Shown piece after piece: positions 1 to 9,168 of a stretch of DNA of 9,168 nucleotides. The stretch spans positions 1-9,168 of the forward strand of contig NZ_JAEDAM010000044.1 of the NCBI RefSeq assembly GCF_018420025.1. Reading direction: 5' to 3'. The translations under genes and the position numbers were made by a program. Every line of letters starts with the position of its first letter. Position 1 is the first letter of the stretch. Origin of the DNA: Candidatus Vampirococcus lugosii (GTDB lineage Bacteria > Patescibacteriota > Gracilibacteria > Absconditabacterales > Absconditicoccaceae). The notes beneath the pieces are model-generated. The model saw nothing but the letters and a program-made list of their open reading frames with translations, was not told the origin of the DNA and ran no database searches.

Positions 1-1010
1 TTATCAAATAATTCTCTCATTTCTGATTTTAAATTTTGTGAAATTCATTCTCTTAGTTTTTTTTCATTTCATTGAATCATAGGTTTATAAATAGATGATA
101 CTTTTTTTATTCAAATACTAGCATGATTTATTTGTAAATAAATATTATATATTCATCTAAGATTCATATCTTGCTCATCTATATTAAATATAATTGTTTG
201 TAAATTATTTATTCTAGCTGTCAAATAATCTCAAATTTTTTCTCTATCTCAATCTATATTTTCTCATTCATCAAATATTTTTGATAAATAGTTTGATAAA
301 TAATTTCTTGTATTTTCATCTCAAATATTATCTAATTCATCATTAATTTTTTCTAATTTTTTATATATACTTACATAATTATCAATAATTTCTAAAATAT
401 TTTCTATAATATATTTTAAACTATAAAAATCTAATTTATTATCATAAGATTTTACAGTTATTTTTTGGAAACTACAATCCGAACTTTCTAGTTCATCCAA
501 TAATTTACAAGAAAGTCAATTAATAATATCTGTTCATATTCAAACATCTTTCAAATTTACATAACCAGTAAAAGCATCTACAAATTCTTGTCTATTTTGA
601 TATCATGTAAATTTATTTTCCCATCTCAAATAATTATTATAACTATCATTATTTTGAAATAAAACTTTAATATCACTTATATCAAAATATTTTAGAGAAC
701 CTTCCAAATTTTGAACAGTTCTCAATTGCAAAATTGCTACATCTATAAAAGTAGGCTGACTTTTTGGAGATTCATTTGATAATTTATTCAGAGCATTTGA
801 TTTTTGTGAAGAATCTAATTGATCAAAATTAATAGAAGATACACCTCATAACACATCAAACTTCTCAAAAGTATCAGGAATTTCTGCTGTACTTATTATA
901 TTTTTATAAACTTCATTTAATAAAGTTGAAGATGTTGCTCAAAATGATATAGAAGTTAAATTTCCCAAAGAAACTATAATAAACAACATTAATATATATA
1001 ATTTTTTCAT
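1..1010 (-). CDS. Hypothetical secreted or envelope protein with an N-terminal signal peptide; partial, the 3' end lies beyond position 1
   Basis: With TGA=Gly the frame is open from ATG (1010..1008) to the window edge: 336 codons plus 2 nt, no TAA/TAG, about 14 in-frame TGA. TAA/TAG are frequent in the other frames. The N-terminus MKKLYILMLFIIVSLGNLTSISFG/ATSS has a basic n-region, a hydrophobic core and a small-residue cleavage-like site, with no lipobox Cys. The rest is N/D/E/K/I-rich and looks helical, for example ...IIENILEIIDNYVSIYKKLEKINDELDNIGDENTRNYL.... It has two Cys 11 residues apart (LSCKLLDELESSDCSF). I recognise no family. Confidence 0.7.
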
Positions 1011-1025
1011 TTTTTATTTTTTTAT

Positions 1026-1077
1026 TTTAATAAATAATATTATTTACTTAAAATAAAGTATAATATTATTTATTAAA
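1026..1077. repeat. Imperfect 52-nt palindrome: 18-bp perfect inverted repeat plus an inner 4-bp extension
   Basis: The arm 1026..1043 (tttaataaataatattat) is the exact reverse complement of 1060..1077 (ataatattatttattaaa). After a 2-nt bulge (tt, 1044..1045), ACTT (1046..1049) pairs with AAGT (1056..1059) around the 6-nt loop aaaata. It is the longest inverted repeat I found in the window. It overlaps the -10 and spacer of the predicted promoter of the 1..1010 gene. Confidence 0.8.
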
Positions 1078-1084
1078 TTTTCAA
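1057..1084 (-). promoter_or_regulatory. Sigma70-like promoter candidate for the hypothetical secreted protein gene
   Basis: The minus strand reads TTGAAA (1084..1079), then 16 nt, then TATACT (1062..1057). 46 nt separate the -10 from the ATG at 1010. Three other genes on this strand show the same layout. Confidence 0.4.
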
Positions 1085-1178
1085 GTATATTTTAAGTTTT
1101 ATTATATTAAATCAAAAAAATACCACTTTTTTAATTAAATTAAATTAAAAAAATGGTTATTAGATAAAAAATATTTTT

Positions 1179-3071
<1,893 letters not shown>

Positions 3072-3110
3072 ATATTAATTTATTTAATAAATACTAAAAA
3101 TATAAACTAT

Positions 3111-3138
3111 ATTATATATATTTTTTTAATAAATTCAA
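3111..3138 (-). promoter_or_regulatory. Sigma70-like promoter candidate for gyrB
   Basis: The minus strand reads TTGAAT (3138..3133), then 16 nt, then TATAAT (3116..3111). 39 nt separate the -10 from the ATG at 3071. Confidence 0.45.
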
Positions 3139-3245
3139 TTGTAAAAACTATTTTTATCTTAATACCCAAAATTTATTGACAATAATAATATTATATAATC
3201 AAATTATTATTCTTGACATATATTCTCAAAAAATAATCTAGTAAA

Positions 3246-4340
3246 TTAAACATTAAATTTAAAAATTATTACATCTCAGTCTTGAACAACATAATCCTTT
3301 CATTGCAATTTTACTAATCATTTTTCTTTTGCTTTTTGCCAAGAAAATGTTTCCAAAAGATCTTCATATTTTACTATTTCTGCTTTAATAAATCATCTTT
3401 GAAAATCAGTATGAATAGCTCATGCTGCTTGAGGAGCTGTACTATTTTTTAATATTGTCCAAGCTTTAGTTTCTTTTTCTCAACTTGTAAAATAATACAT
3501 AAGCCCAACTTCATCAAAAGATTTTTTTATCAAATCATCCAATGTAGGAATTTTTACATCTCAATACATATCTTTCAAAAAATCTTGTTTTTCTTGTTTA
3601 TCAAATTCTATCATATCAGCTTCAATTTTTGCACTTACTAAACAAACTACTTTATCAAGCTTTTTTTCATATTCTTTTATTAATTTTGAAGAATTTAAAA
3701 TATTTTCTTCGGAAACATTTAAAACATATATAAACGGTTTATTTGTAAGAAAATTATATTGTTTCAAAATATTTTTTTCTTTATCAGAAAAATCACTATA
3801 TATATCATATATTAATTTTCATTCTTGTAATATTGATTTTGCTTTTTCCAAAACAGAAAAAGTATCTATTGCATCTTTATCTTTACTTTTAACTTTTTTT
3901 GATAATTGAGGTAATTTATCTTCTATTTGTTGCAAATCGGATATTATAAGTTCTGTATTTATTGTTTCTATATCTCTCATAGGATCAACATTTCAATCTA
4001 CATGATTTACATCTTCATCTTCAAAATGTCTTACCACTTGCACAATAGCATCAACTTCCCTTATATTTCATAAGAATTTATTACCTAATCATTCACCATT
4101 ACTCGCTCATTTCACCAAACCTGCTATATCAACAAATTTAATATTTGCATAAATTTTATTTTTAGAATTTGAAATTTCAGATAATTTATCAACTCTTTCA
4201 TCTTTTACATCAACTATTCAAGTATTTGCATCAATAGTACAAAATGGAAAATTTCAACTATCTGCAGAATAAGAATTTGTAAGAGCATTAAACAATGTAG
4301 ATTTACCAACATTTGGCAAGCCAACTATACCTATTTTCAT
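3246..4340 (-). CDS. ychF: Ribosome-binding ATPase YchF (Obg-family P-loop NTPase)
   Basis: 1095 nt, 364 codons plus TAA, matching the roughly 363-aa family size. Motifs: [21 protein letters not shown] (P-loop); [13 protein letters not shown]; [38 protein letters not shown]; NVSE (YchF-type NxxE in place of NKxD). The C-terminal TGS-like region reads [36 protein letters not shown]...[18 protein letters not shown]. Track ORF 3561..3767 is an in-frame fragment. Confidence 0.93.
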
Positions 4341-4374
4341 AAAAAATATATTTAATTAAATAAATTTAAATATC

Positions 4375-4402
4375 ATTATAATTAATTAATATTTTATTTC
4401 AA
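4375..4402 (-). promoter_or_regulatory. Sigma70-like promoter candidate for ychF
   Basis: The minus strand reads TTGAAA (4402..4397), then 16 nt, then TATAAT (4380..4375). 34 nt separate the -10 from the ATG at 4340. Confidence 0.45.
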
Positions 4403-4469
4403 CAAGATATTGTTTTTTATTTCAAAAATTTTTTAAAATAAAAAATTGTATTAATTTAAACTAAAAAAA

Positions 4470-5039
4470 TTATCTCAAAATTTTGTAATTATCAGTAAAA
4501 TCTATAATTCTAGATTCAACAGATTTTTTGTAATTATGTATCAGAATATAATCAACATTTTTTTCAAATTTTTCTTCAAAATATTTTTCATCTTCTATAT
4601 AATCAGTATTTGAAATATTTGCAGAAGTAGTAATAAAAGCTTGATTTAATTTAGTTACAAAATTTTGAAAATTATTTTTTAATATTCTAACTCAAACTTT
4701 ATTATTTACTCAGATATCGGGCAAGAATAAATTATTTTTTTTACTAAGAATTACTGTAATACCGTGATTATTTTCCAAAAAAAAATTAAATTTTTCTTCA
4801 AAATCATTACTTGTAATAAAATTTTCTTTGATCCAATCAATATTTGGAGCTACAATAGAAAAAGGTTTATTTTTATCTCTTTTTTTAATATCATAAATTC
4901 TCTCAATATTTGATTTATTTACAATAGATCAAATTCAATAAATAGTATCTGTAGGATAAATAAAAATTTTATTATTTAATGCTTCTTTTACATAAAAATC
5001 AAAATTATCACAGAAATAATTGAAATTTATTTTCTCCAT
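4470..5039 (-). CDS. tsaC: L-threonylcarbamoyladenylate synthase, short YrdC/TsaC form (Sua5/YciO/YrdC/YwlC family)
   Basis: 570 nt, 189 codons plus TAA. Family motifs: IFIYPTDTIYGIGS; IKKRDKNKPFSIVA (K-x-R...KP); GVRI; FITTSANISN (S-x-N); SRIIDFT. The size fits the single-domain YrdC form without the Sua5 C-terminal domain. It starts only 30 nt downstream of the pheS stop. Confidence 0.8.
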
Positions 5040-5069
5040 TAAAAATAAATTAATTCAATAAAATAAAAT

Positions 5070-6095
5070 CTAAAAACTTTTTATGAATCTTATATCTCAA
5101 TTTGTCAAAAGTCTTATATCTTTAATTCAATATTTAACTGCTATCAGTCTAGTCATTCACATACCAAATGCAAATCATGAATATTTTTCAGTATCTATTC
5201 ATCACTCTTTAAGAACATTAGGATGGATCATTCAAGCTCATAAAATTTCTATCCAACCAGTTCATTTACACAAACTACATCATTTTCATTTACAAATAGG
5301 ACAAGATGCATCAATTTCCATACCTGGTTCTACAAAAGGAAAATATCAAGGTCTCATTCTTATTTCAAGTTCATCATTTTCTAATATTTTGGACAAAAGT
5401 TCTCTCAAAGTATATTTAAGCTCTGCCATAGATATATTTTCTCAAACTACAATTCATTCATATTGCCGAAAACATGAATCATGAGATGAATCTAAATTTT
5501 CATATCTATAAACTTTACCTGGAATTACAACTTTTGATGGTGCTCAATATTTTTTAAATATATCATTTTGTTTAGCAGAAGTATGAGTTCTTAATATATA
5601 TTCTTCTCATTTTTCATCTTTATTTGTAAGAAAAATAGTATCATGCATTTCAGTAGCAGGATGATTAGATGGAACATTAAGAGAATTAAAATTTTCATAT
5701 TTACTAACTAAACTATCTCCTTTTTCTATTATAAATCACATTCATCTAGATATTTCTTCTATTTGTCTCCTAGTTTTTGAAATCAAATTTAAATATCATT
5801 TATCTATATCAAAAGATGGAATACCTATATCTATAAGTTCATTATTTAATTTTTTATTTATTTGTTCTTTTTTTAAAAAATTCTGTTTTTTATCAAATTC
5901 AATTTGTATTTCATTCTTTAGAGAACTAAGAAATTGTCATTTTTCTTTTCTTTCTTCAGGAGACAATTTTCCCAAAGTTTTAAATTCTTCATTTATTTGA
6001 GATTTCTTACCAAGATATTTTCAATGAAAAGATTGTAATCATTCTACATCACAAACACTATCTAAATTTTTTAAAATTTCATCTTTATTTATCAT
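5070..6095 (-). CDS. pheS: Phenylalanine--tRNA ligase alpha subunit
   Basis: 1026 nt, 341 codons plus TAG. Motifs: ...EEISRGMGFIIEKGDSLVSKYENFNSLNVPSNHPATEMHDTIF; LRTHTSAKQ; PGKVYRYENLDSSHDSCFRQYEG (class II motif 2 region); [50 protein letters not shown] (Cys4 cluster as in Bacillus-type PheS); YSGFAFGMGMTRLIAVKYGIKDIRLLTNGDIRFIKSF* (motif 3). Confidence 0.93.
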
Positions 6096-6133
6096 AAAAA
6101 AATATATATTATATAATAAAATTATATTAAATA

Positions 6134-6161
6134 TATATAATGAAAAAATAAATATTTTCAA
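6134..6161 (-). promoter_or_regulatory. Sigma70-like promoter candidate for pheS, probably a pheS-tsaC unit
   Basis: The minus strand reads TTGAAA (6161..6156), then 16 nt, then TATATA (6139..6134). 38 nt separate the -10 from the ATG at 6095. Confidence 0.45.
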
Positions 6162-6231
6162 GATTTAAATATTTTTTTGTACCAACAAGATTAAATTATC
6201 AGTACTACTATAAAAAAAAACATATTTATAG

Positions 6232-6259
6232 TTGTTTTTTATTAAAAAATCTTTATATA
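6232..6259 (+). promoter_or_regulatory. Weaker promoter candidate for infB
   Basis: The plus strand reads TTGTTT (6232..6237), then 16 nt, then TATATA (6254..6259). 35 nt separate the -10 from the ATG at 6295. The spacing matches the minus-strand candidates but the -35 is poorer. Confidence 0.3.
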
Positions 6260-6294
6260 TTAATATTATTTAATTTTGTAAACTACAATTTTGT

Positions 6295-8991
6295 ATGGTA
6301 AGCATTAGTGTCGCAAGTAAAGAATTTTGACTTACAAAAAAAGAATTTATTCAATTTGTAAAAGAAAAAACTGGTAAAGTTTATAGTGAGAAAACTTCAA
6401 GAATTTCTGATAATGTTTTTAATAAATTAAAAAAAGAATTAAAGCCAAAACTTGAAGATAGTGATACTTCAAAAATTTCTTATAAAAAAACATTTGTATC
6501 TGATGATGATATTCTTTTGGAAGAGAATTCTTTTTTATCTGAATTATGATTTGAATCTGAAATAAATAATATGATTATAGATAATAAAAAAAACTTAAAA
6601 AAAGAACAAATTGTAAGCACTATTTCTGACAAAAAAAATGAAATTATTGAAAAACTTGAGAATATTGAAGAAGTAAAAGTAAAAAAAGATGAAAAAGAAT
6701 TTATTAATACTAATTTAGATATAGATATAGATAAAAAAGATCTATGAAAAGATGAATTTATTAATGAAGAAAATGATAAAAATAAAGAAGTAGAGGTAGA
6801 AGTAGAAGAAAAAAAAGAAAAAATAAATCTTAATTCAGAAGAAAAAGCTTGATCAAAAAATATATCTGTTTGAGGTAAAAATAAGAAAACAGGTAATAAG
6901 TTTAAAGTAACCAAAAAAATAGATCAGAATCAGAATATAAAAGAAGAAAAGAAAAATGATAATAAATCAAATAATACACCTGTTGTAGGCAACAATAATA
7001 ATTGAGAAAAAAAACAATGATGAATAAAGTTTAATATAGTTAAAAAAAGTGATAAAGTTAATACTTCTTCTAATTTTGGTAAAGTAAATAATTACTGAAA
7101 AAAAACTACAAAATTAACAAAAAAAGATAAGAAAAAACAAGCATCTTTTGTTAAAAAAGAAGAACCAATTAAAAAAAGAGAGATAAATCCTCAAGTTTCT
7201 TCAACATTAAAGAAAAAAGATGTTATTAGTATATGAGATAAAATAAGTATAAAAGAATTTTCGGAAAAAATGTGAGTTTCATTACAAGAGCTAATGAAAG
7301 CTTTATTGTGAAATAAAATTGTTTTGTCGGTAGCATCTAATATAGATTTTGATACAGCATCTTTGATATGAGAAGAACTTGGTGTTAAAGTAGAAAAAGA
7401 AAAAGAAGATGTTTCTGTAAGTAAATTATTGTCTTGAGATATTAAATCTATTTTGGATCTTGATAAAGATTTGCCAAATCTTTCAGTTAGAGCTCCTATT
7501 GTTACAGTTATGGGACATGTAGATCATGGTAAAACTAAATTATTGGATTATATTAGAAAAACTGATGTTGTATGATGAGAAGCGGGTTGAATAACACAGT
7601 CTATTTGAGCATCACAAATTCATCATAATTGAAATTTAATAACTTTTATAGATACTCCTTGACATGAATTATTTACAGCATTAAGATCTAGGTGATCAAA
7701 AATAACTGATGTAGCAATTATTGTTGTTGCTGCTGATGATTGAATTAAACAGCAAACTGTAGAAGCTATAAATCATGCAAAAGATGCACAAGTTCCTATA
7801 ATTGTTGCAGTTACAAAAATAGATTTGCCAAACTCTAATATTGAGTTAGTTAAATCTAAACTTTCAGAACATTGATTAGTTGCTGAAGATTGGTGATGAG
7901 AAACTATTGTAGTTCCAATTTCTTCTATTACTTGAGAATGAATTGACGAATTGTTAGATATGGTAAGTTTACAATCTGAAATATTAGAATTAAAATATAA
8001 TTCTGAAAGAAATTGAGTTGGTGTTATTTTGGAGTCAAAAAAAGATGCTAAAAAATGAATTACAGCTAGTATGATATTAATGACTTGAAATATGAATATT
8101 TGAGATGTTATTATTTTAGGATCTACATATGGAAAGATAAAAAGAATGACCAACTGGAAAAAACAAGATATAAGAAAAAGTTTCGGTTGAGATCCTATAC
8201 AAATTCTTTGAATACAAGATTTACCAAAACCTTGAAGTATTGTGGAAGTTATAAATTCGGAAAAAGATGCTCGTAATAAAATACAAAAAATTAAAGATAA
8301 TGAAGAAAACGAAGTTGTATGAATTTGAGTTCAAAATTTATTGGATCAAATTTCTGCATGAGAAAAGACACAACTTAAACTTATTTTAAAATCTGATAGT
8401 TTTTGAAGTTTGGAAGCATTAAAATATGCTATATGAAAAATAGATGTACATGAAAATGTTGAAATTAAAATACTACATAGTGATGTATGAGCAGTTAATG
8501 ATTCTGATATTAATTTGGCAAAAGCTTCTCTTGCTTTTATTGTTTGATTTAATCTTATTAATAATGCTTTAATCAAGAAAAAAGCTGAAAATCAATGAGT
8601 TATAATTAAGTCATTTGATATTATCTATGAACTTATAGATTATGTACAAACATTAGCTACTTGAATGATTGTGATAGAAAAAGAAGAAGTTCATATATGA
8701 AAATTAGAGATTAAAGCTGTATTTTATAGAAAATGAAAAGAAATGATTGTTTGATGAAAAGTTATTCAATGAAAAATTAGAAATTGATCATATTTGAGAG
8801 TATATAAAGATGAAATAAAAAAAGAAGAAGAGAAAGATATACAAGCTTTTGCAACTGGTAAAGTAAGTTCCTTAAAAAAAGAACAAGAAAATGTTGAAGA
8901 AATTTCTGTAGGTCACGAATGTGGTATTAAAATAAAAGTTTCTCAAAAATTACAAGTATGAGATGTTTTAGATTTTTTTGTAATGGAATAA
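6295..8991 (+). CDS. infB: Translation initiation factor IF-2
   Basis: 2697 nt, 898 codons plus TAA. The in-frame TAA at 6271..6273 leaves ATG 6295 as the only start. About 50 in-frame TAA-free TGA codons by hand count. The roughly 400-aa K/E/N-rich N-terminal region includes an IF2_N-like segment, [48 protein letters not shown]. The GTPase core reads [42 protein letters not shown] (G1 at 7513..7536), [17 protein letters not shown] (G3), [24 protein letters not shown], and [10 protein letters not shown] (G4 variant). It continues [24 protein letters not shown] and then domains through ...[27 protein letters not shown]. Confidence 0.96.
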
Positions 8992-9168
8992 TATATAAAA
9001 AATAATTTTTAATTATAAATTAAATCATTTTTTATGATGAACAATAAATTAAGTTAAAAATTAATTAATATTTTTATATTTAATTTATTTATTATAATTA
9101 GTATGATACTGTATATATAATATATTTATTTGAAAATTATTTATAAAATGAAATTAGTTGTTTGATTA

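Follow-up and report, generated by a model that had tools for sequence, protein, structure and literature searches.

The change of UGA from a stop codon into a glycine codon in the SR1 (Absconditabacteria) and Gracilibacteria lineages within the candidate phyla radiation (CPR) has been known since 2013 and is catalogued as NCBI translation table 25; as cited in PMC8080830 and PMC8629427, it goes back to a 2013 article in PNAS and to Rinke et al. 2013 in Nature. The code of the clade is given in PMC8080830 and in the preprint 10.64898/2026.05.24.727570. For Candidatus Vampirococcus lugosii, the genome paper published in 2021 (Moreira et al., PMC8080830) states that UGA is glycine, and the genes were called there by Prodigal with table 25. 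A second well-described system is translation table 4 of the Mycoplasmatales, the Entomoplasmatales and several insect endosymbionts, in which UGA is also a sense codon of AT-rich, reduced genomes, but one that stands for tryptophan. A further departure from the standard code was predicted with the program Codetta by Shulgina and Eddy in 2021 (PMC8629427), who assigned CGA and CGG to tryptophan in Absconditabacteria, while CGG is still arginine in some Gracilibacteria. In this work we examine how these codons are read in a stretch of 9168 bp from Ca. V. lugosii (contig NZ_JAEDAM010000044.1, positions 1 to 9,168), which will be called the window throughout.

In everything that concerns UGA the window is like table 25: UGA is glycine, UGG stays tryptophan, UAA and UAG are the only stops, and the genome is a reduced, low-GC (guanine plus cytosine) genome of the CPR. 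The sole deviation is a CGG codon, joined by CGA in relatives, that seemingly stands for tryptophan. From table 4 the window differs in that its UGA is glycine and not tryptophan, although table 4 is often picked by gene callers for these CPR genomes. Our conclusion is that Ca. Vampirococcus lugosii, a member of the Absconditabacteria/SR1 within the CPR, reads UGA as glycine according to table 25, and we put the probability of this reading at about 0.98. An initial annotation, made from the letters of the window only, had come to the same conclusion and had called the reassignment known biology, rightly so, as it has been published for exactly this genome.

UGA codons of the window at glycine positions

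Under the standard bacterial code (table 11) the window falls apart. Its longest stop-to-stop segment has 186 codons, and only seven open reading frames (ORFs) reach 60 aa or more. When TGA is taken as a sense codon, six long frames of 337, 632, 370, 200, 365 and 906 codons open up, just as the initial annotation had described, and the coding density rises to 90.6% (orf1, gyrB, ychF, tsaC, pheS, infB and the start of pth). The effect is particular to TGA: treating TAG as sense in a control changed nearly nothing (1176 versus 1081 codons in long segments), while TGA as sense gave 4931. The five complete genes, given from the first ATG to the stop, are as follows.

1179..3071, minus strand: gyrB, DNA gyrase subunit B, 630 aa, TAA stop, 36 in-frame TGA
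3246..4340, minus strand: ychF, redox-regulated ATPase YchF, 364 aa, TAA stop, 14 in-frame TGA
4470..5039, minus strand: tsaC family, Sua5/YciO/YrdC domain, L-threonylcarbamoyladenylate synthase-like, 189 aa, TAA stop, 4 in-frame TGA
5070..6095, minus strand: pheS, phenylalanine--tRNA ligase alpha subunit, 341 aa, TAG stop, 22 in-frame TGA, one CGG
6295..8991, plus strand: infB, translation initiation factor IF-2, 898 aa, TAA stop, 50 in-frame TGA

After retranslation with TGA as glycine, all five reach a curated family threshold in profile searches of the kind that the initial annotation had proposed. GyrB scores 903 bits with NF004189, over the cut-off, and matches a GyrB in the PDB at E = 3e-164; YchF (TIGR00092, 438 bits), PheS (TIGR00468, 262 bits) and IF-2 (TIGR00487, 557 bits) are likewise over their cut-offs. 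The TsaC-like protein passes the cut-off of PF01300 with 109 bits and stays, at 99.5 bits, under the cut-off of 123 of the equivalog family TIGR00057.

Across the six genes there are 140 in-frame TGA codons, 52 GGN and 11 TGG, so that TGA supplies 73% of the glycine codons of the window. The window is 22% GC, with about 8% GC at third codon positions (GC3), and such an AT-biased genome would favour UGA as the main glycine codon once UGA is free. The number of TGA codons in pheS follows AT-richness, with 22–25 of them in loci of 21–29% GC (the window, L083 and L085) and 2–5 in loci of 31–43% GC (L166–L171).

The meaning of TGA was then decoded column by column. Because related proteins in the databases have already been translated under some code, raw DNA was used for the references in order to avoid circularity. 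For GyrB, a scan of GTDB species genomes gave 80 loci, 79 of which have no in-frame stop in gyrB and were therefore taken as standard-code references; the remaining one, L001, has 42 TGA in its gyrB. For PheS, where the scan gave mostly distant standard-code organisms and one extra code-25 locus, the panel consisted of raw DNA from 76 standard-code metagenome loci. Each codon of the window was scored, in nats, against the column profiles of the references, and as a control every well-sampled gyrB codon was decoded to its standard meaning. TGA decodes as glycine in both genes. In gyrB the runner-up, glutamate, is 128 nats worse, and tryptophan comes last of the 20 amino acids at -286 nats; in pheS glycine wins by 83.5 nats, with tryptophan at -151. 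The column-wise inference that the initial annotation had proposed thus gives the answer it expected for the window's gyrB and pheS.

The positions themselves tell the same story. Of 36 gyrB TGA codons, 22 fall in columns that are at least 85% glycine among the references, and 13 of these columns are 100% glycine. Seen from the other side, the 38 GyrB columns with at least 85% glycine are filled in the window by TGA in 22 cases, GGN in 15 and another codon in one, and only 1 of 573 non-glycine gyrB codons sits in such a column (Fisher p = 8e-30), which excludes chance. The motif RYK-G-L-G-EM (1365..1373, minus strand) may serve as an example, since both of its TGA codons, at 1371..1373 and 1365..1367, occupy columns that are glycine in 79 of 79 references. 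The same is true of the TGA codons of RPGMYI-G and LHA-G-GKF. In PheS, the glycines of the motifs ILGAGM and SGFAFGMGM lie in columns that are 97–100% glycine. The initial annotation went further and placed TGA on an invariant glycine wherever a motif could be anchored, and this part has to be corrected, as several of its anchors are variable. The first glycine of RP-G-MYIG is glycine in 66% of the GyrBs, and the second one of EGQTK-G-KLG, also named as invariant, is a threonine in 60 of 79. These variable-column corrections leave the conclusion that UGA is glycine unchanged.

Solved structures offer a comparison of another kind. IF-2, PheS, YchF and the TsaC-like protein were aligned with structures from E. 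coli, P. aeruginosa, S. haemolyticus, H. influenzae, human (OLA1) and M. thermautotrophicus. Among 155 pairs of a TGA codon with a structure residue, 96 are with glycine and none with tryptophan. For YchF, 9 of the 14 TGA codons stand opposite glycine in H. influenzae YchF, E. coli YchF and human OLA1; for the TsaC-like protein it is three of four in MTH1692. In the conserved C-terminal 593 aa of IF-2, 26 of 41 TGA codons are opposite glycine in the E. coli protein, likewise in that of P. aeruginosa, and none is opposite tryptophan. The motifs LVKGASNGEGLGN of YchF and TIYGIG of TsaC, both put forward earlier, align to glycine as well. So do GEAGGITQSIG and DTPGH of IF-2, whose TGA codons are found in the sequence at precisely the positions that had been given for them (7573, 7576, 7588, 7606 and 7660..7662). 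Within the G1–G2 region VV-G-G-EAG-G-ITQSI-G (7573..7608, plus strand) there is one exception: the codons at 7576, 7588 and 7606 face glycine in E. coli and P. aeruginosa, but the one at 7573 faces serine or alanine.

The closest relatives add codon-level evidence. PheS of the window is identical over its full length to the NCBI protein P0001 of Ca. V. lugosii, followed by the PheS of Ca. Absconditicoccus praedator (63%) and then by those of Absconditabacteria and Gracilibacteria metagenome-assembled genomes. The PheS matches thus place the window in the Absconditabacteria/Gracilibacteria (GTDB class JAEDAM01), the very lineages that had been guessed from the code. The closest gyrB relative among the GTDB species is L001 (CAYMVT010000018.1, P0062), 75% identical, which has no other gene in common with the window and was used for gyrB codon swaps only. 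Between the two genes TGA is kept at 26 positions and swapped with GGN at 19, while a swap with TGG never occurs. The record of this relative is labelled "uncultured Candidatus Peribacteria", although UGA is clearly sense in its gyrB; this is probably one of the taxonomic labelling problems that the gTranslate preprint deals with. Two Logan assemblies (L081 and L082, runs SRR13241708 and SRR13241709) share 99.7% nucleotide identity with the window and come from the same organism. They repeat 76 of 76 shared TGA codons, and all their proteins are identical to those of the window once TGA is read consistently; as the organism is the same, this speaks for the reproducibility of the TGA codons and is no independent evolutionary evidence. 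The database proteins of these assemblies seem "94% identical" only because calling with table 4 put a tryptophan at each TGA.

Three other readings of UGA have to be weighed. It might be ambiguous, that is, glycine within genes and a context-dependent stop at some gene ends, and such an ambiguity between stop and sense is known in some eukaryotes. The gene ends argue against it. The five complete genes of the window stop with TAA (four) or TAG (one) and never with TGA, as had been counted before. The nine complete genes of a second V. lugosii contig (L172, run SRR13241708; 11 kb, 22.1% GC, 149 in-frame TGA) do the same (eight TAA, one TAG), so that none of 14 ends in TGA. The TAA and TAG ends also coincide with the ends of the homologues in full-length alignments. 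We regard this reading as highly improbable.

Even less probable is that TGA is tryptophan as in table 4. Strong AT-richness and reduction are traits that the genome shares with the table-4 lineages, and table 4 was indeed selected by automatic gene callers for V. lugosii and its relatives: of the 120 best PheS relatives in the databases, 40 (P0002, P0004, P0005 and others) show a tryptophan in place of the invariant glycine of motif 2, EG being written as EW. The column-wise tests of gyrB and pheS reject this reading. None of the 57 TGA codons examined (36 in gyrB, 21 in pheS) lies in a tryptophan column, the scores for tryptophan are those given above, and TGA exchanges with GGN and never with TGG. 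The tryptophan columns use TGG in all four places that the initial annotation had pointed out, namely GyrB QQLW (W in 79 of 79), PheS TGW (W in 76 of 76), and YchF KAW and IF-2 EDW, where the PDB sequences have W; its exclusion of TGA as tryptophan is well founded. The composition of the proteins agrees with this, table 25 giving 7.0% glycine and 0.4% tryptophan and table 4 1.9% glycine and 5.5% tryptophan.

The weakest reading, which we consider practically negligible, takes TGA for a genuine stop and the genes for pseudogenes, products of assembly or amplification errors, or cases of occasional readthrough; table 11 does interrupt every gene, and the source DNA was whole-genome amplified by multiple displacement amplification or multiple annealing and looping-based amplification cycles (MDA/MALBAC; PMC8080830), but this is refuted by the specificity of TGA for glycine columns, by its exact repetition in two independent assemblies of separate runs and by its conservation at 26 of 36 gyrB positions in a relative, and essential single-copy genes such as gyrB, infB and pheS, in which no in-frame TAA or TAG occurs, cannot all be pseudogenes.

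With these set aside, UGA as glycine has its own points on the other side of the balance. About 40% of the TGA codons stand in variable, non-glycine columns; in PheS, for instance, some occur where most bacteria have serine (RP-S-YFPF) or asparagine. Such positions are to be expected for any glycine codon and lend no added support. The V. lugosii DNA covered amounts to about 20 kb, and in the window, L081 and L172 there are no tRNA genes, hence no tRNA-Gly(UCA) was seen there; Rfam and tRNA scans of the window found nothing. The absence of prfB, too, rests on the clade literature. For the full assembly 38 tRNA genes are reported; the supplements of PMC8080830 list no tRNA anticodons or release factors. 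As to the mechanism, the clade literature (PMC8629427 and preprint 10.64898/2026.05.24.727570) would have UGA decoded by a tRNA-Gly with the anticodon UCA, bearing the glycine identity elements G1:C72, C2:G71, G3:C70 and U73, and release factor 2, the product of prfB, would have been lost.

A rare CGG codon in pheS and bipA

The initial annotation held that TGA as glycine decides the whole annotation. Table 25 is not the last word, however, because the single CGG codon of the window is probably tryptophan and not arginine. Codons of the CGN box are nearly extinct in this organism. Among its 2763 codons the window has 62 AGA, but CGT and CGG occur once each and CGA is absent; L172 has one CGA, one CGG and 70 AGA among 3265. 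The only CGA or CGG codon of the window is the following.

5466..5468, minus strand: CGG, codon 210 of pheS, in motif 2 (CF-x-QYEG), arginine under table 25

Arginine is not found at this column in any of the 76 standard-code PheS, which have histidine, tyrosine or glutamine instead. Among the 120 closest database relatives, the column has W in 38, Y in 48 and a supposed "R" in 24. At the DNA level, seven independent relatives with this "R" use CGG or CGA there and never AGA, though AGA is their main arginine codon; together with the window this makes eight of eight lineages. At the same place, TGG is found in A. praedator and in one relative from a metagenome. A similar exchange is seen at the invariant tryptophan of PheS (TGWIEIL; W in 76 of 76 standard-code sequences), where TGG, CGG and CGA are interchangeable among the code-25 relatives: the codon is CGG in L166 and L169 and CGA in L167 and L170. 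The pheS genes of L167 and L169 contain no TGG at all.

The second CGG codon that can be evaluated in V. lugosii is the single one of its bipA gene (L172:3800-5590), codon 136 in the context ARPE-CGG-VIDQLF. Both the five closest relatives and the four solved BipA sequences shown have tryptophan at this place (ARPDWVVDQVF). The neighbours of bipA on L172 differ from those in L083.

A tRNA that might do the reading is present in a relative. In L083 and L084 (65% PheS identity, 24% GC) there is a tRNA(UCG), at L083:1144-1217 (minus strand) and L084:205-278, with A1:U72, G73 and G20. This fits the Trp-type pattern used by Codetta, which is G73, no A20 and A or G1 paired with U72. ARAGORN labels this tRNA as Arg, a label that comes from the anticodon. 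The tRNA-Arg(GCG) of L166 (2127-2201) and of L171 (2206-2280) have A20 and A73, the arginine pattern.

The competing view, that CGG is an ordinary arginine codon, that table 25 is sufficient and that the motif 2 position of PheS tolerates an arginine, survives better than any of the alternatives for UGA, and we still consider it unlikely. The PheS column is variable across bacteria, with H, Y or Q, and the retention of CGG as arginine in some Gracilibacteria is on record. Two further points count against a reading as tryptophan: the sample in V. lugosii is two codons, one in pheS and one in bipA, and no CGG-reading tRNA of its own was found in the window, L081 or L172, nor upstream of secE on L172. 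On the opposite side are the absence of arginine from the standard-code column, the consistent use of CGG or CGA in place of the dominant AGA in the "R" lineages, the alternation of the three codons at an invariant tryptophan, the position of the bipA codon and the features of the L083 tRNA. Since both evaluable V. lugosii codons point to tryptophan, this meaning is favoured. It seems likely, then, from the comparison of sequences, that the code of V. lugosii goes beyond table 25, with UGA as glycine and CGG, presumably CGA too, as tryptophan. As in the prediction for Absconditabacteria, a Trp-type tRNA(UCG) would read the rare CGG and CGA codons as tryptophan, in which case table 25 mistranslates one PheS residue in the window.

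As in the Absconditabacteria code of Codetta, the CGN codons are near extinction with AGA as the dominant arginine codon, and the rare CGG or CGA codons appear at tryptophan columns; a tRNA(UCG) with G73 and no A20 is found in a relative. The difference is that the evidence from V. lugosii itself is two codons. Vampirococcus is not mentioned in PMC8629427, and the literature searched gave no paper that links Vampirococcus to CGG. What the reading of CGG as tryptophan in V. lugosii adds is small: it carries a prediction published for the clade over to one named organism.

Other features and surroundings of the genes

The remaining features of the window are one gene at either end and an ORF of the standard code.

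3..1010, minus strand: orf1, 336 codons, ATG at 1008..1010, C-terminus off the window start, 14 in-frame TGA
9148..9168, plus strand: start of pth, peptidyl-tRNA hydrolase, seven codons, cut by the contig end
5083..5484, plus strand: ORF, almost certainly spurious, 133 aa, the longest ATG-started ORF in the standard code, wholly inside pheS and antisense to it

The product of orf1 has a hydrophobic N-terminus resembling a signal peptide (MKKLYILMLFIIVSLGNLTSISF...) and no family match in NCBIfam or Pfam. Its frame is open only with TGA as sense, with a GC3 of 0.07 and a purine share of 0.62 at position 1 its codon-position signature is like that of the other genes, and the other two frames carry 28–30 TAA or TAG. 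The seven codons of pth read ATG AAA TTA GTT GTT TGA TTA, or MKLVV-G-L. L081 extends beyond the window end to MKLVVGLGNPG..., with a Pfam Pept_tRNA_hydro match that identifies the gene; the TGA is the first glycine of the conserved GLGNPG motif. The 133-aa ORF has no Pfam match and is almost certainly spurious, a good example of how misleading a standard-code ORF track can be.

The gap from pheS to the tsaC-like gene is 30 nt (5040..5069), and pheT is not there. With the tsaC-like gene downstream of pheS in its place, the usual pheS–pheT pair is split. The infB gene points away from pheS, with no nusA upstream of it. In the relative L083 the neighbours of pheS are wholly different from those in the window, which indicates little synteny within the clade. 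The spacers (1011..1178, 3072..3245, 4341..4469, 6096..6294 and 8992..9147) have a GC content of 3–11% compared to about 22% overall, and the GC skew changes sign at the switch of the coding strand, at about 6200.

Consequences for annotation

The confirmation that UGA is glycine in this organism is of practical value rather than a discovery. If table 11 is applied to this contig, fragments result. Table 4 gives full-length proteins with a tryptophan at every glycine encoded by UGA, that is, at close to three quarters of the glycines, and the PheS relatives described above show how widespread this mistranslation is in the databases. The window, for its part, offers tools for code inference a compact positive control.

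The CGG codon carries this further. If it is tryptophan, the proteome as published and as held at NCBI, translated with table 25, has an arginine where the cell inserts a tryptophan, for example at residue 210 of PheS and residue 136 of BipA, and the PheS motif FRQYEG would likely be FWQYEG. No NCBI translation table combines UGA as glycine with CGG and CGA as tryptophan. Even the correct official table 25 therefore probably mistranslates the rare CGG and CGA codons in Absconditabacteria, which supports the use of the Codetta-predicted code in annotation pipelines.

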